A stretch of DNA of 54,187 nt from Candidatus Velthaea sp. (GCA_050012475.1 JBEKHC010000023.1:1-54187), one strand, 5' to 3'. Numbered from the stretch's first letter, positions 37,454-45,682 are shown. The notes: generated by a model not told the origin, from the sequence alone. Numbers and translations are program-made.

Positions 37454-37576
37454 CCGGCCGGCAGATCGGCCGCGTTCCGCGGTGTCGCGCAAGACTTGGC
37501 CGGAGGCACGCTGCCGGCAGTTCGTGCGTTCTGCTGAAGAGCAGGCGATACCACTGCTGAAGATGAGGAGAGACCC

Positions 37577-38233
37577 TTGAGGCACCTTGGTTGGATCGCC
37601 GCGCTTGCTGCGGGTGCAATCGCTTGGCCTTGCGCTTCGGCGGCCCAGCCCGCCCTGCTGCACACGCCGACCCCGGCGCCGTACACTACGACGGTCGGCG
37701 CGCATGCGCGCTATAGCAAAGCCCGCATCAACCTCAATGCGCCGAATCTCGCGTTGCTGGCCGCGGTAATCGCGGCTGGCGGCGGTCCGACGGCGTTCGA
37801 CGCGCAGAAGCTGCTCGGCGTCCTCACCGGGAACGGACCATCCACGCAAACCGAGCTGGCCGCTCTGACGAAACGATTCGGAGCGCAAAACCTCGCGTCG
37901 TTCTTCACCACGTTCCATTTCGTCATCACCGATGCGGTCACGCAGTTTGCGGCCGACGGAATGGCGCTGCCGGCCTCGCCGATCCCGGACCCGACCGACG
38001 GCAAGGCCCTCGCCGCGGCCCTTCTCGCAACTGGGACGGCACCGCGCGGCAGCTTCGACGTAGAGTACTTGCTCGACGGACTTGTCTCGCACGTGGTCCA
38101 CGTTGCAGTGATGAACGACATCGACGCCAACCCGGATCTCGGACCCAAAGCCGACGCAAACTACCACGCCGTGTTCGCGCAAATGATGCTCGACGTGAAA
38201 TCGGCCGATTCGCTTGCGGGCGGTAAACGCTAA
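37577..38233 (+). CDS. Conserved hypothetical secreted protein
   Basis: Signal peptide; AAGGG, DGKALAAAL, FDVEYLLD, SHVVHVAVMNDID, ADANYH; SD GAGGAG. Confidence 0.8.
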   Translation: MRHLGWIAALAAGAIAWPCASAAQPALLHTPTPAPYTTTVGAHARYSKARINLNAPNLALLAAVIAAGGGPTAFDAQKLLGVLTGNGPSTQTELAALTKRFGAQNLASFFTTFHFVITDAVTQFAADGMALPASPIPDPTDGKALAAALLATGTAPRGSFDVEYLLDGLVSHVVHVAVMNDIDANPDLGPKADANYHAVFAQMMLDVKSADSLAGGKR

Positions 38234-38293
38234 CGTTCAACGGGTTGACGCGACGCGACCGGAGAACGCGTCGCGCCTTGCGAAGCGGCCGGC

Positions 38294-38707
38294 ATGAAGA
38301 ATGAAGCGAGCATCGACGGTATCACCGTCGGCGGTCAACCGAGCGCAGCCGACTTGAGTAACGGGATGTTTACCAGCGTCATCAACGTTCGCCGCCATGA
38401 AGAGCCCGGCAATGATACCGAGGTGCTCGTGGCCGGATCGCAGATCAACTACACGGTCGTGCCGTGGACCATCGACACGGTCACCAAAGAGGATATCGCG
38501 ACGATTCGTGCCGCAGTCGATGCGTCGCGCGGTCCGGTGCTCATCCATTGCATGGGCGGAACGCGCGCCGCGCTCGCGGCAGCGATCGTTTCCGCGGAGA
38601 AGGATGGCTCCGGTCCCAGCGGAGCGATTGCGAAAGCCGAGGCCGCCGGTTTCGAGATTCGGGGCACGCCGTACGGGGCGTTCATCGACGAATATTTCCA
38701 CGCCTGA
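38294..38707 (+). CDS. DUF442/BLH-like sulfur-transferase (PTP-fold) protein
   Basis: ITVGGQP, SVINVR, PVLIHCMGGTR (CX5R-like loop). Confidence 0.8.
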   Translation: MKNEASIDGITVGGQPSAADLSNGMFTSVINVRRHEEPGNDTEVLVAGSQINYTVVPWTIDTVTKEDIATIRAAVDASRGPVLIHCMGGTRAALAAAIVSAEKDGSGPSGAIAKAEAAGFEIRGTPYGAFIDEYFHA

Positions 38708-38728
38708 TCACGCTTCGGGGCTTCGACT

Positions 38729-41700
38729 TTAGGACACGGAGCGCAGCGGCCGAACCATCGTTCCCGGTAAGAGTTTGCCGGCGACGTGCAGCGGGTCGTA
38801 CGCGGCGACTTCGACCGTCGCTTCGCTGTCGCCGCTGCGGCGCGACGCTCGCAACGCTTCGATCGCTTCGGGTAGCGCGAACTGCTCCCCAACGTAGCCC
38901 GCTACGAAGCGGCCGCCGCGAATCCCGCCGCGGGCCTCCATCCGGCGCAGCGCGACGAGCAACTCGCGCCACGGCGGGGCGAGGGTTTCCCGCGCGACGA
39001 TGTCGCGAAAGACGACGCCCCAGCGCAGCAGCAGGCGGCGCGCGAAGGCGTCGGCGTCGATGCGCTCGGCGTCCGATTCCAGAATCGTCCACCGCCCGCT
39101 CGACGAACGCGGCCGTGCCCGCTGGCCCTTTTCGCCTAACCGTCGCCGGCGATCGGTCAAGGCCCGCAGCGCGTCGAAGCCGTCGGCGGTCACGAGACCC
39201 GCTGCCACGAGCTGCCAGAGGGCTTCCTCGACTTCAGCCGGGAGCCGCTTCGTCAGCCGGACGATGTCCGGAAAGAACGGCGCGCCGCGGGCTTCAATCA
39301 CGGCGTACACCTCGCGCGCTGCATGCGACAGCGCGCTCGGCTCGAACGGCCGGCGGACGACCAGCGACGGCGCATCGTCGCGAGTGAAGAGCGCGATCGG
39401 CGCAAGTTTCGTCGGCCGAATTCGCCGCACGGGGGTTCCGGCGGGGGCACCCAACGCCGGATGCGCCGACAACCGGCCCCACATCACGTCGCCGGCATGA
39501 CACAACTGATCGAGATACTCGCGTCGATAACCGGCGATGCGCGCCGGCAGCACGGTCGATTCCCAGGCCGCCGCCGGGATTTCGTACCCTTCGAGTTGAC
39601 GGATGACGTGCAGCGTGCCGTCGATGCCGTGCAGACGCGTTGACGGCGCGACGTGCTGCCAGCGAAACAGAAAGCGCACGTAATCGGACGTGCTGACCGG
39701 TTCGATCTCGCGGCGCAGTGCGCCCAGCGTAAGCCGATGGATTCGTGCGAGCACCCGGCGATTGCACCACTCCTCGGCTTCGCCGCGAAAACGACCGCGA
39801 AGAACTTGGCCTTCGGTTTCGAGTTGAATCAGAGCCGTCGCGATGAGCACCGGATCGACGGCGAACCGCAGCGCTAACTCAGCGGCCGTGACCGGTCCGC
39901 TCGATTCCAGCCAGCCGCGCAGCACTTCGGCAAACGCCGCTTCGCGCGTCTCGGGCAGTGGCTGGGATGATGCAACTTCGGCGATCGCGGGTTGCGCGCC
40001 GGCGTGCGGATACGCGACCCGCGCGAGCGCGAGCCGTTCGGCGCAGGTCCAAAACGGTATGCCGCCGGCGTCGAGCAGCGTCGCGCGCTGCTGGGCGACA
40101 AGCTGTTCGAACCAGCCCTCCCATTCGGTTACCGGCGGCAAAACGGTGAGTGTCGCGAGCGCGTCGTGCAATTCGTCGGCATCGCGCACCAGCGGCCAGG
40201 CGGTTTCAGCGACTTCGGCGATGGCCGCGGGGTCGAGGACGCCGTGCTCGCCGGCTTCGACGTGCGACGTGCGACGCAGCGTGACGGCGCGCGCGCGCCG
40301 CTCCTCGAGCGGCGCGTCGTCGAGAAACGCGTACGGGTTGGCGTTGAGAATTTCGTGGCTGAACACCGATGGTTCGGCCGTGTCGACGGCCAGCGTCGCG
40401 ATCGCGCCGGACTCGATCCCTTGCAGCACCGTGCGTAGGCCGTCGAGATCCATCGCTTCGTGCAGGCAGTTTGCGATCGTCTCGCGGACCAGCACGTGAT
40501 CCGGCACCTGCAGTGGCCCGCTGCGGTTTTCACCGCATGCGGCGGCGTCGGGAAAGCACGCGGCGAGCAAATCGTCGGCGCGCATGCGCTGCAGCTGCGG
40601 CGCGACCTTGCGCCCTGCCCGCATGCGCAAGATCGCCAGGGCCCGAGTGGCGTTCCAGCGCCAGCGGGCGCCGAACATCGGCGCCGTCAGCAGCGCTTGC
40701 GTGAGGGTTTGCTCGACGCTGGCCGATTTGACGAACTCGAACACGATCTCGAGCGGAAAGGCGTGCTGATCGGTCAACGAGAGGACAATCCCGTTGTCGG
40801 TTGCCGCGGCTTGCAGTTCCAAATCGAACGAGCGGCAAAATTTCTTACGCAGGGCCAGACCCCATGCCCGATTGATGCGCGCGCCGAAGGGTGCATGCAC
40901 GATCAACTGCATCCCGCCGCCCTCGTCGAAGAAGCGTTCCGCGATCAGCGTCGTGTCGGTGGGAACCGCGCGCAACACGGCTTTCCCGGCGCGCACGTAG
41001 GCGATGGCTTGGGCAGCGCCAGCGGCATCGAGTCCGCACTGCGCGAGCAGCAGGGCCGTTGCGGCCGCATCATCGCGCTCGTCGATCGCCGCCCGAAGCG
41101 CCGCCACTTCGCGCGAAAGTTCGACCGTTCGTCCGGGGCCCTCGCCGTTCCAGAACGGGATCGTGGGCGGCGCACCGTGCGCGTTCGCGACCCGCACGAC
41201 GCCCGTTTCGACGCGCCGAATTTGCCACGAAGTCGTGCCGAGCAAAAACACGTCGCCGGCCAAGCTCTCGATCGCGAAATCTTCGTCAACCGTGCCGATG
41301 ACCTGCCCGTCGGGTTCGGCGACGACGTTGTAGTTTGCGGTCTCGGGGATTGCGCCGCCGGAGGTGATCGCGGCCATGCGCGCTCCGCGCCGCGCGCGAA
41401 GGCGGCCGTTCACGCGATCGTAGTGCAGAAAGGCGCCGCTGCGCCCGCGCGCCGTGGCGACGCCGTCGGCGAGCATCGCAACGACGGCATCGAAATCAGC
41501 GCGCGCGAGGTCGCGATACGGGTAGGCCGTGCGCACCGCCGCGAAAAGCCCGTCGGCGTCCCATTCGCCGGTCGCGCAGGTTGCCACGATCTGCTGTGCG
41601 AGGATGTCGAGCGGTGCAGCCGGGATCGTGAGGGCGTCCATCGCGCCGCTGCGCATCGCGCCCACGAGGGCCGCGCATTCGAGCAGCTCGTCGCGCGTGG

Positions 41701-42844
41701 TCGCAAAAAGCCGGCCTTCGGGCCGAGCGCCGACCCAGTGACCTGAACGGCCGACGCGCTGCAGCGCGACGGCGATCGAGCGCGGCGTGCCGAGCTGAAT
41801 CACCAAGTCGACGGCGCCGATATCGATCCCTAGCTCGAGTGAGGCGGTCGCGACGACCGCGCGCAGCGAACCGCTCTTGAGCCGATCCTCGGTTGCAAAG
41901 CGAATCTCGCGGGCCAAGCTGCCGTGGTGCGGCAACACCGCGCCTTCACCCAGCCGCGTGCCCAGCGCGAACGCGACGCGTTCGCTCATCCGCCGGGTGC
42001 CGACGAAGATCAGCGTCGTCTTGTGGGTTTGGACGAGCTGGGCCACGCGGTCGTAGATCTGACCCCACATCTCGCTGCTGGCGACGGCTCCCAGCTCATC
42101 GCCGGGGACCTCGACTGCGAGCGTCATCGCACGGCGATGACCGACATCGACGACCGTCGCCCCCGGCGCGCCGGGACTCAAGAACTGCGCGACCGGCGAC
42201 AGCGGCCGAATCGTCGCCGACAAGCCGATGCGCTGCGGTTTCGCGCCGCCCGCAGCCCGCACGAGCTCGTCCAGGCGTGCGAGCGTCAGCGCGAGATGCG
42301 ATCCGCGCTTGTCGGCGGCGAGTGCGTGAATCTCGTCGACGATGACGGTCTGCACACGCGTGAGCAGCGCGCGCGACTTCTCCGCGGTCAACAGAATGAA
42401 GAGCGACTCGGGCGTCGTCACCAGAATGTGCGGCGGCTTGCGCAGCATGCGCGCGCGCTCGCTCGCCGTGGTGTCGCCCGTGCGCGTCGCGGTGCGGATC
42501 GGTGCGAGCGCCAGGCCGGTTTGCTCGGCTCGGGCGAGCAGTTCGCCCAGCGGCGCTTCGAGATTCTTGCGCACGTCGTTCGTGAGCGCTTTGAGCGGCG
42601 AAACGTAGACGACGAGCGTCGCGTCGGGGAGCGGGCCTGATTGCGCGTCCCGAATCAAGCCGTCGAGTGCGAGCGTAAATGCCGCCAGCGTCTTGCCCGA
42701 ACCGGTTGGTGCCGAAACCAAAACGTCACCGCCCGCTCGAACGAGCGGCCATGCGCGCACTTGGGGTTCGGTCGGCTCGCCGAACCGCTCGGCAAACCAG
42801 CCGGCAACGAGGGGCGAGAAGAAGTCGATCACCGTCTCCAACAC
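38729..42844 (-). CDS. lhr: Long-form Lhr DNA helicase (SF2 core plus winged-helix/glycosylase-like CTD)
   Basis: APTGSGKT, SPLKAL, TTPES, DEIH, SAT, HHGSL, LELGIDIG, QRVGRSGH; CTD WESTVLPARI, RGGRFVAG.GEQFA. Confidence 0.95.
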   Translation of the reverse strand: MLETVIDFFSPLVAGWFAERFGEPTEPQVRAWPLVRAGGDVLVSAPTGSGKTLAAFTLALDGLIRDAQSGPLPDATLVVYVSPLKALTNDVRKNLEAPLGELLARAEQTGLALAPIRTATRTGDTTASERARMLRKPPHILVTTPESLFILLTAEKSRALLTRVQTVIVDEIHALAADKRGSHLALTLARLDELVRAAGGAKPQRIGLSATIRPLSPVAQFLSPGAPGATVVDVGHRRAMTLAVEVPGDELGAVASSEMWGQIYDRVAQLVQTHKTTLIFVGTRRMSERVAFALGTRLGEGAVLPHHGSLAREIRFATEDRLKSGSLRAVVATASLELGIDIGAVDLVIQLGTPRSIAVALQRVGRSGHWVGARPEGRLFATTRDELLECAALVGAMRSGAMDALTIPAAPLDILAQQIVATCATGEWDADGLFAAVRTAYPYRDLARADFDAVVAMLADGVATARGRSGAFLHYDRVNGRLRARRGARMAAITSGGAIPETANYNVVAEPDGQVIGTVDEDFAIESLAGDVFLLGTTSWQIRRVETGVVRVANAHGAPPTIPFWNGEGPGRTVELSREVAALRAAIDERDDAAATALLLAQCGLDAAGAAQAIAYVRAGKAVLRAVPTDTTLIAERFFDEGGGMQLIVHAPFGARINRAWGLALRKKFCRSFDLELQAAATDNGIVLSLTDQHAFPLEIVFEFVKSASVEQTLTQALLTAPMFGARWRWNATRALAILRMRAGRKVAPQLQRMRADDLLAACFPDAAACGENRSGPLQVPDHVLVRETIANCLHEAMDLDGLRTVLQGIESGAIATLAVDTAEPSVFSHEILNANPYAFLDDAPLEERRARAVTLRRTSHVEAGEHGVLDPAAIAEVAETAWPLVRDADELHDALATLTVLPPVTEWEGWFEQLVAQQRATLLDAGGIPFWTCAERLALARVAYPHAGAQPAIAEVASSQPLPETREAAFAEVLRGWLESSGPVTAAELALRFAVDPVLIATALIQLETEGQVLRGRFRGEAEEWCNRRVLARIHRLTLGALRREIEPVSTSDYVRFLFRWQHVAPSTRLHGIDGTLHVIRQLEGYEIPAAAWESTVLPARIAGYRREYLDQLCHAGDVMWGRLSAHPALGAPAGTPVRRIRPTKLAPIALFTRDDAPSLVVRRPFEPSALSHAAREVYAVIEARGAPFFPDIVRLTKRLPAEVEEALWQLVAAGLVTADGFDALRALTDRRRRLGEKGQRARPRSSSGRWTILESDAERIDADAFARRLLLRWGVVFRDIVARETLAPPWRELLVALRRMEARGGIRGGRFVAGYVGEQFALPEAIEALRASRRSGDSEATVEVAAYDPLHVAGKLLPGTMVRPLRSVS

Positions 42845-42880
42845 AACCCGGTTCGCGCCGACGAAGTTGAGGTCCGGATG

Positions 42881-43255
42881 CTATTTGCGCTGGTGAAGGA
42901 TGAACGTGTTGCCTTCCGGATCGCCGGCGAACGCCATGAAACACGCCGGCGTTTCTTCGATCGCTCCGTCGTCCTCGAAGGCCACGCCGCGTTTTTTGAA
43001 CTCCGCGACGGCCGACGCGAGGTCGTCGACGGCGAACATGATCCCGCGCGTCGGCTCGAAGGAACCGTCGGTCATTTTCCAGACCCCGAAAGTCGTTCCG
43101 TCCGTCAACTCGAACTCGGCTCCTTGCGATCCGTAATCGGTTGTGACGCGAAGACCCAAGGTATCGCGGTAGAACGCTTTCGCGCGGTCGGCATCTTGCG
43201 CCAGATAGGTGACGATGTCGATCCCTTTGATGACGGTCAAGCCGGCAGCGGACAT
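42881..43255 (-). CDS. VOC (glyoxalase/bleomycin-resistance) family protein
   Basis: RAKAFYRDTLGL, FAVDDL, GVAF, DPEGN; SD AGGAG. Confidence 0.92.
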   Translation of the reverse strand: MSAAGLTVIKGIDIVTYLAQDADRAKAFYRDTLGLRVTTDYGSQGAEFELTDGTTFGVWKMTDGSFEPTRGIMFAVDDLASAVAEFKKRGVAFEDDGAIEETPACFMAFAGDPEGNTFILHQRK

Positions 43256-43277
43256 GTGAATTCTCCTAACGTGGCGT

Positions 43278-43313
43278 TCGAGCAGCCACCGCTTTTCGAG
43301 CGGCTACCGCTTT
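43278..43313. repeat. 18-bp tandem repeat in the leader of the VOC gene
   Basis: TCGAGCAGCCACCGCTTT / TCGAGCGGCTACCGCTTT. Confidence 0.75.
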
Positions 43314-43389
43314 TTCTGGACCCGGAAACTTCAGCGGACCGTCCGCTTCAGCGACGGGAAAAGTTATAACTCCGGATCCGACAGAGGAA

Positions 43390-43419
43390 AGAATAGCGAA
43401 CACGTGTTCGACTTGTCAA
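43390..43419 (-). promoter_or_regulatory. sigma70 promoter with a LexA (SOS/Cheo) box in the spacer
   Basis: TTGACA(43419-14)-N18-TATTCT(43395-90); the spacer contains the perfect palindrome CGAACACGTGTTCG (43397-43410). Confidence 0.8.
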
Positions 43420-43666
43420 GCAGCCAGCCTTTTTCGGCGAGCCCGGATAGACGGGCTCTCAGGCGGGCTCTGTTGTTGCGCCGTCGACCGAGCGAACCGC
43501 TCCCACCGGTCAGCGTGAAATGGAAGCGTCGATTTCAGGTTGCTACGGGCGAAGCTCTCAGCTTCAGGCGCTATATCGTTAAGCGACGATGAAAATTTGG
43601 GACGCCGCGGCGATCCGCCGCCGCGCGAGGCTGAACGCAATCCCGGCTGCGCGAACGAGGACGGCC

Positions 43667-45682
43667 ATGTCGTCGCGCCGTTGGATCGGAATCGTCCTGA
43701 GCCTCGCACTCGTGGCCGCCGATGTGCCGTGCCCGGCGGCAGCCGGTTTGTCGACCGGTCAGGAAGTCCAGCTGGGCAAGCAAACCGACAAGCAGGTGAC
43801 GGACTCCACCAACGTGGTGACGGATCCGCTGCTCAATGCGTGGGTGACCGGCATTACCGCGAAGCTCTGGGCCCAAGTCGCGCGCAAAGACGTGCCGTAC
43901 AACATCAAGATCTTGGATGTTTCCGACGTGAACGCGTTCTCGACGTTGGGCGGCTACGTGTACGTGAACGAAGGCACGCTGGACTTCGTGCAGTCCGATG
44001 ACGAACTCGCCGGCGTGCTCGGTCACGAGACGGGCCACATCGAACGGCGGCACGCGGTGACCTCGCAAAACAAGGCGTTGTTGGCCAACGTGCTGCTCAT
44101 GGCCGGCTCGCTGTTTTCTCCGTATCTCGAACCGGTAGGTCAATTTCTCGAAGCCGGGGCGCTGGCCAAGATTTCGCGCACCGATGAGAACGAAGCCGAC
44201 AAGTACGGTTTGATGCTGATGGCGCGGGCCGGCTACGATCCCGAGGCGATGGTGTCGTTCATGCAGCATCTGGGCGCCATCGAAACCGAAGATCACGAAT
44301 TCATCGACAAATATCTCGCCGATCACCCCGGCGTCCCGACGCGCGTTTCGCATCTCGTGGGCTATCCCGAACTCGATCCGACGAAGCGGTCCGTCGAGCA
44401 ACGCGAGGCTGCGGCCTTGCACAATCTCGATGAAGCGCGTTACGCCATCGCGGCGCGCGAGTTCGGCGCCATCGTCCGGGCCCATCCCCAGGACACGGTG
44501 GCGATGTATCACCTCGGCGAAGCGCAGCTTGCGCTGGGCCTGACCGCAAAAGGGGAACAGAATCTCGCGCAAGCAGCCGCCGGCGGCACGCCGCAAACGC
44601 GCACGCTGGCCCTGGGCTTGATCCGCGGTCTGCGCGATAGCGAGCGGCGGTTCGTCGTGATGCGGCCGAGCCTGCAGCCGCTGCGCGATGCGGTCGCGCA
44701 AGCGGTGGCGACGAACAAAGCGGCGGCGGACGCCGCGACGCCGCGTCGCAACGCCGCTCGCGACCAACTCAAATCGCTTTCCGCGCGCGTTACCGACATC
44801 CAAAACGAGATGCCCGATCTCTCGCGTCTGCAGCCGCGCCACGGCGGTCAGTTCGACGCGGTCCTGCGCAATCTGTCGACCATGGGCCGAACGCTCGACG
44901 CCGCGGTCGGCAAGGCGCAGGCGACGATCGGCGGCGTGGGGTCGCTCGAGGCGAACAAAGAGGGCGGGTTGTTCAAAGAGAACGCCGATACGCTGGTCGA
45001 TCTGGCGGAACCGCTCAAGCTCGATGCCCCGCCGCCGCAGGCGCTCGCGACGTTGGCTTTTTATCCGCGCATGGTTGCCGACATTACCGACGCCGACGGC
45101 GATCTCACGCGTGCGCTCGACGGATCCGTCAGCTCGCTGACGCTGCTCAACGGAGCGCTCGGCGATCTCGATGCGTTCGTGCGCGCCCTCGCGCGCGTCC
45201 AATTCGGCGGCGGCGACATCCCAATCGACGATTACAAGAAGCTCGAACCGGCGATGACGGCCGCCACAGATTCCCTCAAACGAGCTGCCGATGCCGCCTC
45301 GCAAGCCAATCAGCTGTACATGATGGCCCGCGCGCGCCAGCTGATGGCGCAGATCGACATGCTGGGCCTCGCGTCATCGCCGGACCGCTATGCGACCCTC
45401 CAGAAAGCCATTGCCTTTCGCTGCGGTAACCACTTGCCGACCTACGAAGAACTCTTGCACGAGAACCTGTCGCCGGGTCAGGTGACGGCGGCAGCGATCG
45501 TCGCCGCGGACACCAACGTGACGCCCGAGGCGATCGAGCAGGACGCCGCTTCGGCGAAGCGGTCGATCGTTGACGTCGCGAATGTCCGCGGCATGAGCGC
45601 CGAGGCGCTCGAAATCATGTTGGGCTTGGTCTATCTCGATTACGCCGACGATCCCGATAAGGAAGCGCGCGGGCGCACGTAA
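43667..45682 (+). CDS. M48 family metallopeptidase with TPR and long helical C-terminus
   Basis: Signal peptide; VNAFSTLGG, ELAGVLGHETGH (HExxH), ENEADKYG, AGYDP, DHP; SD GAGGA. Confidence 0.9.
   Translation: MSSRRWIGIVLSLALVAADVPCPAAAGLSTGQEVQLGKQTDKQVTDSTNVVTDPLLNAWVTGITAKLWAQVARKDVPYNIKILDVSDVNAFSTLGGYVYVNEGTLDFVQSDDELAGVLGHETGHIERRHAVTSQNKALLANVLLMAGSLFSPYLEPVGQFLEAGALAKISRTDENEADKYGLMLMARAGYDPEAMVSFMQHLGAIETEDHEFIDKYLADHPGVPTRVSHLVGYPELDPTKRSVEQREAAALHNLDEARYAIAAREFGAIVRAHPQDTVAMYHLGEAQLALGLTAKGEQNLAQAAAGGTPQTRTLALGLIRGLRDSERRFVVMRPSLQPLRDAVAQAVATNKAAADAATPRRNAARDQLKSLSARVTDIQNEMPDLSRLQPRHGGQFDAVLRNLSTMGRTLDAAVGKAQATIGGVGSLEANKEGGLFKENADTLVDLAEPLKLDAPPPQALATLAFYPRMVADITDADGDLTRALDGSVSSLTLLNGALGDLDAFVRALARVQFGGGDIPIDDYKKLEPAMTAATDSLKRAADAASQANQLYMMARARQLMAQIDMLGLASSPDRYATLQKAIAFRCGNHLPTYEELLHENLSPGQVTAAAIVAADTNVTPEAIEQDAASAKRSIVDVANVRGMSAEALEIMLGLVYLDYADDPDKEARGRT

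Follow-up and report, generated by a model that had tools for sequence, protein, structure and literature searches.

The VOC-lhr locus and its promoter

We analysed a 54,187-nucleotide stretch of DNA from Candidatus Velthaea sp. (GCA_050012475.1 JBEKHC010000023.1:1-54187), hereafter the window, and focused on positions 38,729 to 43,419. In this region a gene for a VOC-fold protein is followed on the same strand by lhr, which encodes a long-form Lhr helicase, and is preceded by a promoter that contains a LexA-type operator. The features are as follows.

43414-43419, minus strand: -35 hexamer TTGACA of the VOC promoter (TTGACA in 8 of 8 aligned loci)
43397-43410, no strand: LexA-type operator CGAAC-ACGT-GTTCG in the promoter spacer (exact match, rank 10 genome-wide, conserved in orthologues)
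43390-43395, minus strand: -10 hexamer TATTCT (all 8 aligned loci have TAnnnT behind the box)
43263-43267, minus strand: AGGAG, a ribosome-binding-site-like motif 5' of the VOC start
42881-43255, minus strand: gene for the VOC-fold protein, 124 aa, Cys-His subfamily (Pfam PF00903, model, conservation)
43217-43219, 43115-43117, 42941-42943 and 42893-42895, minus strand: VOC codons for Asp13, Glu47, Cys105 and His121, respectively
42845-42880, minus strand: VOC-lhr gap, 36 bp, no terminator-like match
38729-42844, minus strand: gene for the long-form Lhr helicase, 1371 aa, likely start GTG 42832 (Pfam, 7LHL match)

The palindrome CGAACACGTGTTCG occupies 43397-43410 and is an exact match to the consensus CGAAC-N4-GTTCG. 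Read on the minus strand from 43419 to 43390, the promoter runs TTGACA-AGT-box-C-TATTCT, with an 18-nt spacer filled by the palindrome, and this TTGACA/TATTCT pair is the sole promoter-like match within 37500-44500. A first-pass annotation of the same DNA had reported both this arrangement and an lhr gene 36 bp after the VOC stop, and the coordinates bear out both. Alignment of the lhr start across relatives points to GTG 42832, with which the gap would be 48 bp. The leader of ~130 nt upstream of AGGAG is unconserved, and its length and sequence vary among loci. A structured leader or terminator was considered and rejected on this variation and on a leader fold z of -1.27.

The operator belongs to the SOS boxes of this genome

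CGAAC-N4-GTTCG is given as the SOS box consensus of B. subtilis and S. aureus (PMC9578287). The count of the motif was discarded as evidence by itself: with one mismatch allowed, the window contained 7 matches against 5.6 expected, a total no higher than chance. In the 5.36-Mb genome there were 40 exact matches, many of them intragenic. The window box nevertheless stands above chance because of its context: under a matrix derived from just 5 SOS sites it ranked 10th genome-wide (the recA box ranked 13th), no other exact box of the genome lies between TTGACA and TAnnnT, and the footprint at this site is conserved in orthologues. The same motif lies 177 bp upstream of the single lexA of the genome (TIGR00498) and 175 bp upstream of recA (lexA/recA sites C95:5694 and C42:29658), and it also precedes the imuA-like, imuB-like and dnaE2 genes, supporting the earlier designation as a LexA box. 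The exact consensus, the overlap with the promoter and the presence before lexA, recA, imuA/B-like genes and dnaE2 are shared with the Gram-positive-type SOS box; the host differs, being a member of the Vulcanimicrobiota/Eremiobacterota. With the box placed in this way, LexA very probably represses the VOC promoter.

Other sites of the genome (G000) were also recorded. An exact box (C20:1099) is located at the 5' end of the short-form Lhr gene, a 932-aa open reading frame (C20:1085-3883, L235), so the LexA regulon may include both Lhr paralogues. Further high-scoring boxes were located at C7:69077, C31:25781, C55:23283, C4:17714, C73:17048 and C145:8285. They adjoin a radical SAM gene of the Rv2578c-like type, a hypothetical gene with a 3-methyladenine glycosylase gene after it, and a DUF2126 transglutaminase-like gene; others lie between a YqeG phosphatase gene and a ribonucleotide reductase gene that carries an intein-like insert, by a chemotaxis receptor gene and by a motA-like gene. 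A second damage motif, TGCCA-N6-TGGCA, was absent from the 300 bp before the window VOC gene and before the other VOC matches of the genome, and also from the region upstream of 33 lhr loci.

The box tracks the VOC gene, and lhr joins it within one genus

We surveyed 160 VOC homologue loci and scored a box at a value of at least 17. The results showed a box in 8 of the 11 loci with at least 62% VOC identity and in 1 of the 149 below 62%, of which 142 had at least 150 bp upstream. Conservation of the box in close relatives, a check suggested in the first-pass annotation, was upheld. One of the eight boxed loci (L046) encodes a protein 100% identical to the window VOC. We aligned the promoters of the window and the 7 non-identical boxed loci, which were chosen because they were boxed; TTGACA, box and TAnnnT were present in 8 of 8 rows, while flanks and leaders diverged.

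Downstream, lhr followed the VOC gene in 6 of 8 boxed loci, and in 5 of the 7 non-identical ones (63-81% VOC identity). One further locus (L049) has only 72 bp downstream of VOC, unlike an lhr start. We then compared 33 long-lhr loci (3 within the genus and 30 outside), leaving out genomes marked unpublished. The VOC gene was directly upstream of lhr in 2 of the 3 genus loci and in 0 of the 30 outside, where a box of its own preceded lhr strongly in 1 of 30 (19.9) and moderately in 1 of 30 (14.6). The proposed VOC-lhr synteny therefore held within the genus and failed beyond it, and a module conserved beyond the genus was ruled out. Equally, the notion of a general two-gene module was not sustained, since the adjacency is genus-restricted and genome G002 has a boxed VOC gene without lhr. 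Taken from these loci, the pattern is that the box belongs to the VOC gene, that lhr is a genus-level recruit behind the VOC promoter, and that the genuine SOS-type unit is restricted to one genus, of soil bacteria.

Genome G003 carries two long lhr copies (C238:26126-30156 and C242:26852-30892), each matched piecewise in different frames, which may reflect a frameshift or assembly error. VOC and box occur only at the C238 copy, and the second copy (L008) has neither. At L020, lhr has a boxless family VOC gene 2.7 kb upstream in the same orientation. At L185, a distant member (58% identity), a strong box at 2476-2491 lies ~20 bp before the start codon. This position suggests that LexA controls a leaderless copy here and that the box may have been recruited a second time. 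On a quick tree of 129 columns (151 of 156 rows, without identical ones), 4 changes are needed to explain the box label; the tree is also compatible with one origin, in which L185 would not be independent.

The two genes are probably co-transcribed. The 36-bp gap contains no terminator-like match, and one 337-nt RNA-library contig spans 42811-43133 with 0 differences, which is compatible with co-transcription, if weakly, as a contig is no single transcript and DNA contamination is possible. The RNA data comprised contigs from 4 runs of 1 study at low cover and are uninformative on strand, level and induction; no contig covered 43262-43822, and a control stretch was patchy.

These data also bear on a simpler account, in which LexA control of the VOC gene is real and lhr is an incidental neighbour, expressed on its own or by read-through and sharing no target with the VOC protein. 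It would fit any VOC mechanism. The 0 of 30 loci outside the genus with VOC directly upstream, the one strong and one moderate box there, the second G003 copy without VOC or box, the boxed VOC gene without lhr in G002, and the likely loss of the terminal barrel region from this Lhr (see below) all agree with it. Against it are the adjacency in 5 of the 7 non-identical boxed loci, the exact box at the 5' end of the short-form Lhr, and the situation in another family of the class: there, 4 genomes of one genus have WYL and VOC genes as a divergent pair at a distance of 3-10 kb from the 3' end of lhr, and in a fifth genome of that family the VOC gene and lhr adjoin tail-to-tail (L246, L248, L249, L250 and L247 overall). 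All of this may be a single chance event. We regard an incidental lhr as a serious possibility that falls clearly short of even.

The VOC protein lacks the canonical metal ligands and keeps a Cys-His-Asp-Glu set

The VOC protein contains the motifs IDIV, GIMF and GNTFIL, and its canonical metal slots are occupied by Ile14, Gly57, Gly71 and Ile119, with no His, Glu or Gln; a glyoxalase-I-like control from the same genome has E/H/E at slots 57/71/119. It thus differs from the glyoxalase I and FosA metal enzymes at all four slots, and slot 14 held a ligand residue in 0 of 148 family rows.

To describe the family, we used a profile search without a pattern, which gave 505 representatives at E at most 1e-10, and counted residues over 180 domain rows from the best 150 matches of the 505 plus the query. 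The results showed that Cys105 (146 of 158 covered rows), His121 (144/148), Glu47 (149/161), Asp13 (128/144) and Arg123 (120/142) are kept, while Trp59 (47/161) and Met107 (95/157) decay. Cys105 and His121 occur together in 143 of 149 rows covering both, and 101 of the 122 full rows have all four of Asp, Glu, Cys and His. In an alignment of 90 sequences (the query and 89 of the best 150, picked as near-full-length single domains), Cys105 and His121 are invariant at a mean column identity of 34%. The first-pass description of the protein as ligand-less therefore stands for the four canonical metal slots and not for the site as a whole, in which Cys105, His121, Asp13 and Glu47 are conserved. A conserved Cys, His and acid are also the hallmark of Cys-His-Asp triad enzymes, a likeness of mechanism and not of family.

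No named family was found for the protein, the best NCBIfam score being 25.8 bits against a cut-off of 140. The 90 family members gave generic VOC matches only, and the Atlas search led to generic glyoxalase clusters. The Cys-His pattern was absent from the solved structures among the top alignments listed.

The AlphaFold model had a predicted local distance difference test (pLDDT) score of 93. Its top structural matches were TnmS1 (Z 14.9, root-mean-square deviation 2.5, 115 aligned), TnmS3 (14.8), TnmS2 and UcmS2 (14.7) and ZbmA (14.2), with uncharacterised proteins tying with the TnmS group at the top; FosA-type proteins (13.5), E. coli glyoxalase I (12.3) and MRD (10.2) were lower. From the strand register of the model (105-111 and 117-123), Cys105 would lie opposite Arg123 and diagonal to His121. 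A dimer model scored 0.82 against 0.00 for the best control; the score mark was passed in 20 of the 30 solved pairs and in 1 of the 23 single chains. The model runs shared at least 92% of contacts at pLDDT of at least 89, and the result may reflect memory of solved VOC dimers. The VOC protein is predicted to be a homodimer, with His121 contacting Asp13 of the partner chain in the model; we read the arrangement as a putative Cys-His-Asp triad faced by Glu47 from the other side of the cleft.

Comparison with drug-binding VOC proteins

The structural ranking raises the alternative that the VOC protein is a passive sponge, stacking an antibiotic as TnmS1-3 and the bleomycin-binding proteins do, while Lhr repairs the lesions of that drug. 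The known binders TnmS1/2/3, UcmS2, ZbmA, the bleomycin-binding proteins and MRD (5UMQ, 5UMW, 5W27, 6CKY, 4IAG, 2ZHP, 2A4W) share with the window VOC the VOC fold and the dimer predicted here. The group of TnmS, UcmS2 and ZbmA leads the structural matches at Z 14-15, ahead of glyoxalase I at 12.3; TnmS3 is also the best single-sequence PDB match (E 9e-5). A protein without canonical metal ligands, with a pI of 4.5 and with Gly at two former ligand slots, which would widen the pocket, suits such a role. The aromatic residue of the TnmS Pro-Trp-Gly loop has a stacking role. TnmS proteins are reported to sequester tiancimycin (PMC9854587, PMC6804068).

The same comparison counts against a sponge in several respects. 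Identity to the TnmS-type matches is only 23-26%, uncharacterised proteins tie for the top, and in profile comparison glyoxalase I enzymes score equal to or above TnmS3. The Pro-Trp-Gly loop of TnmS3 is Pro-Ala-Cys in the window VOC, and Trp at slot 104 occurs in 0 of 159 covered rows (Val in 105 of 159), although Trp59 and Phe109 could replace the missing loop aromatic in the window protein. Cys105, His121, Asp13 and Glu47 are conserved in the family, and none of them is found in the aligned TnmS3. A further difference from the drug-sequestering VOC proteins lies in the scanned neighbours, which are not genes of antibiotic biosynthesis. The likeness to drug-binding VOC proteins that had been proposed therefore holds for TnmS1, TnmS3 and TnmS2, within the tied top group, and fails for MRD, which lies below glyoxalase I. 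Passive sequestration is weakened by the conserved residues and the missing Trp, and we consider it quite unlikely. The conserved set suggests thiol chemistry over plain stacking.

Family distribution and WYL neighbours

The VOC family was present in 92 of the 151 genomes of the phylum searched (a tally that includes unpublished genomes, which carry no other claim here), all within three families of the class. Copy numbers ran from 2 to 11 per genome. An HTH-WYL gene lay in the flank of 68 of the 149 similarity-ranked loci below 62%, and Pfam confirmed the WYL identity in 8 of 8 flanking proteins checked. WYL activators such as SiwR, DriD and PafBC are reported to sense single-stranded DNA, and glyoxalase-like (PF18029) genes beside siwR have already been described (PMC10693628). 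In 10 single-contig genomes the share was lower: 8 of 41 family members were within 2 kb of a WYL match, compared with 0 of 71 other VOC matches, at a cut-off of E at most 1e-20 picked after the lists were viewed; conversely, 6 of 23 WYL genes had a family-VOC neighbour. Other neighbours varied and included ArsR-AHSA1, HxlR, methyltransferase and acetyltransferase genes.

Within the genome studied here, the closest paralogue of the window VOC gene is divergent from a WYL gene. Like the SiwR-type systems (PMC10693628), paralogues of the window VOC adjoin HTH_11-WYL-WCX genes, often divergently, and to judge by this adjacency they may be regulated by the WYL proteins; the window copy instead has a LexA box and no WYL neighbour. 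Judged by neighbourhood, the family leans to DNA-damage regulators, with most members showing no visible tie.

Members were also observed outside this setting, on Legionella and haloarchaeal plasmids (L206:5001-5363, L207:5001-5363 and L208:3995-4390). Of the Legionella copies, one is near a class D beta-lactamase gene and one comes after a thiopurine methyltransferase gene; the haloarchaeal members are near an ArsR-SRPBCC-DHFR cluster. In natural tandem two-domain forms (P0069-P0072, P0075, P0078, P0083 and P0086), both domains mostly retain Asp, Glu, Cys and His, and one form has an AHSA1/SRPBCC-like domain fused in front of it.

The varied neighbourhoods are relevant to a further alternative, in which the VOC protein is a general detoxification or metal-handling protein, with Cys105, His121, Asp13 and Glu47 either forming a new metal site or acting on aldehydes or quinones. 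All four residue types commonly serve as metal ligands. On this account, the SOS regulon would have taken up this one copy since metabolic electrophiles are damaging to DNA too. The 2-11 copies per genome and their varied neighbours agree with such a role, as do the glyoxalase-like genes of M. tuberculosis, which are reported to be induced by SigG and, being damage-linked, proposed for methylglyoxal detoxification (PMC3776920). Strand order, in contrast, would set Glu47 across the cleft, on the wall opposite Cys105 and His121, and the excess of family members next to WYL regulators and LexA boxes speaks for DNA damage in particular. We hold general detoxification to be unlikely, if less so than a sponge.

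The window Lhr has an intact helicase core and a short C-terminus

The Lhr protein matched the Pfam models DEAD, Helicase_C, WH_Lhr, DEAD_assoc, WH3_Lhr and WH4_Lhr and aligned to 7LHL at E 7e-198. Its superfamily 2 core is intact (GSGKT 48, DEIH 170, SAT 209, QRVGRSGH 362), Trp565 is the equivalent of Trp597, and the C-terminal winged-helix modules PF23235 and PF23234 are present. The C-terminal domain aligned to positions 1009-1398 of the 1508 of 7LHL (M. smegmatis; E 2.6e-39), and the protein ends 15 residues beyond position 1398, ~110 residues shorter than M. smegmatis Lhr. NF007284 was matched only to 1438 of 1538, and a similarly short C-terminus was present in 20 of 20 relatives checked. 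At five tetramer-interface positions (7LHL alignment, one-residue offset), Arg1286 and Thr1100 are kept, while Asp1366 is replaced by Glu, His1199 by Ala and Arg1206 by Pro.

The mycobacterial Lhr C-terminal domain is described as terminating in a beta-barrel that completes an AlkZ-like fold (PMC8053096), and the glycosylase residue of E. coli Lhr as Asp1536 of 1538 (PMC10953399). Judging from its length, the window Lhr likely lacks the AlkZ-like barrel and, with it, likely a counterpart of Asp1536, the last ~110 residues that cover these regions in the M. smegmatis and E. coli proteins being missing. With the M. smegmatis Lhr-Nei2 operon it shares the helicase core, the Trp597 equivalent, the winged-helix C-terminal domain and a damage-linked two-gene arrangement (PMC9841417, PMC8053096); that operon has PafBC control and a downstream nei2, in place of the LexA box and upstream VOC gene here.

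Mycobacterial lhr is reported to protect against mitomycin C and cisplatin, its induction proceeding through PafBC and not LexA (PMC9841417), and E. coli lhr mutants to be peroxide-sensitive and not mitomycin-sensitive (PMC10953399). The analogy drawn in the first-pass annotation thus survives in that mycobacterial lhr is damage-induced and crosslinker-protective, and weakens on regulator, on the E. coli phenotype and on the missing residues. For these three reasons, crosslink repair by the window Lhr is an extrapolation.

Flanking genes

An M48 peptidase gene at 43589-45682 (plus strand) points the opposite way to the VOC promoter at a distance of ~180 bp from the box, a divergent arrangement that L048 and L050 share. 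At the other end, a gene for a 218-aa protein without a Pfam match (37577-38233, plus strand) and a BLH-type phosphatase-like gene (38294-38707, plus strand) both point towards the 3' end of lhr, and G003 has similar genes next to lhr (L210).

Discussion

In this study, we aimed to place the boxed VOC-lhr locus in a single explanation, taking as its basis the observed motif, its position and conservation, the gene order and the residues. We propose, tentatively and at somewhat less than even confidence, that the LexA-type box would keep the VOC gene off until DNA damage; that in the released VOC homodimer the Cys105-His121 pair would attack and neutralise an electrophilic DNA-damaging compound, assisted by Asp13 and Glu47 of the partner chain; and that Lhr, encoded directly downstream and probably co-transcribed, would help to clear the lesions that still form. 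Among its parts, a genotoxin as the VOC target is about evenly balanced, and a thiol attack, whether catalytic or single-use, is conceivable but not quite an even prospect. A stronger version holds that the subfamily has swapped its metal centre for a cross-dimer Cys-His-Asp thiol site, destroys or traps DNA-alkylating antibiotics, has been wired repeatedly to damage regulators (LexA, WYL) and forms an intercept-and-repair operon with a barrel-less Lhr; taken whole, that version is improbable.

Several observations weigh against the proposal. Passive binders give the closest structural matches. At Asp13, Ala stands in 9 of 122 rows, as it does in 2 of the 4 paralogues within the same genome, and the family matches were ranked by a hidden Markov model that rewards Cys and His, which introduces some bias. 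No box was found upstream of those paralogues (0 of 4), and two of them adjoin ArsR-AHSA1 or HxlR genes. Three of the 11 closest loci (64-68% identity) are boxless. In G002, of the same genus and 88% complete, box and VOC gene are kept with an opposite-strand kinase gene downstream, and no long lhr was found in that genome. Of the 41 family members in the 10 genomes, 33 have no WYL neighbour, and the Fisher p of 2e-4 for the enrichment is overstated because the genomes are kin.

For the VOC protein, the nearest precedent that we considered is Caulobacter crescentus MmcA, which we take to be a glyoxalase/dioxygenase-family protein and for which we know of no link to lhr. MmcA is reported to be SOS-regulated and to protect from mitomycin C as a probable detoxifying enzyme (PMC9578287; 10.1101/2022.06.10.495655). 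SOS-type control, very probable for the window VOC gene, is the common feature, with a different SOS box in the case of MmcA, and with this precedent genotoxin handling by the window VOC is plausible. In the literature, the main text of an S. venezuelae LexA study contained no glyoxalase, VOC or Lhr term (PMC9380542), and a 2026 crosslink-repair review, as far as it was available, mentions Lhr and not VOC proteins of this kind (PMC13705206). Our literature search, with supplements and most subscription papers outside its scope, found no account of a VOC subfamily with a Cys-His pair, of VOC and lhr genes paired under LexA control, or of the SOS regulon in Eremiobacterota.

The box and Lhr are of known kinds, and the Cys-His VOC subfamily is the new element. 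If the VOC protein is a plain binder or a general detoxification protein, the locus would be an ordinary SOS gene pair with known precedent. The locus gives a first outline of the LexA regulon in Eremiobacterota, and a natural Lhr that likely lacks the AlkZ-like barrel bears on the need for the barrel in crosslink repair. If the Cys-His site is reactive, the VOC fold would support metal-free thiol chemistry in a family of 505 representatives now labelled only 'VOC family protein', and, if the proposal is true, this family would provide a candidate environmental resistance route against DNA-damaging natural products.

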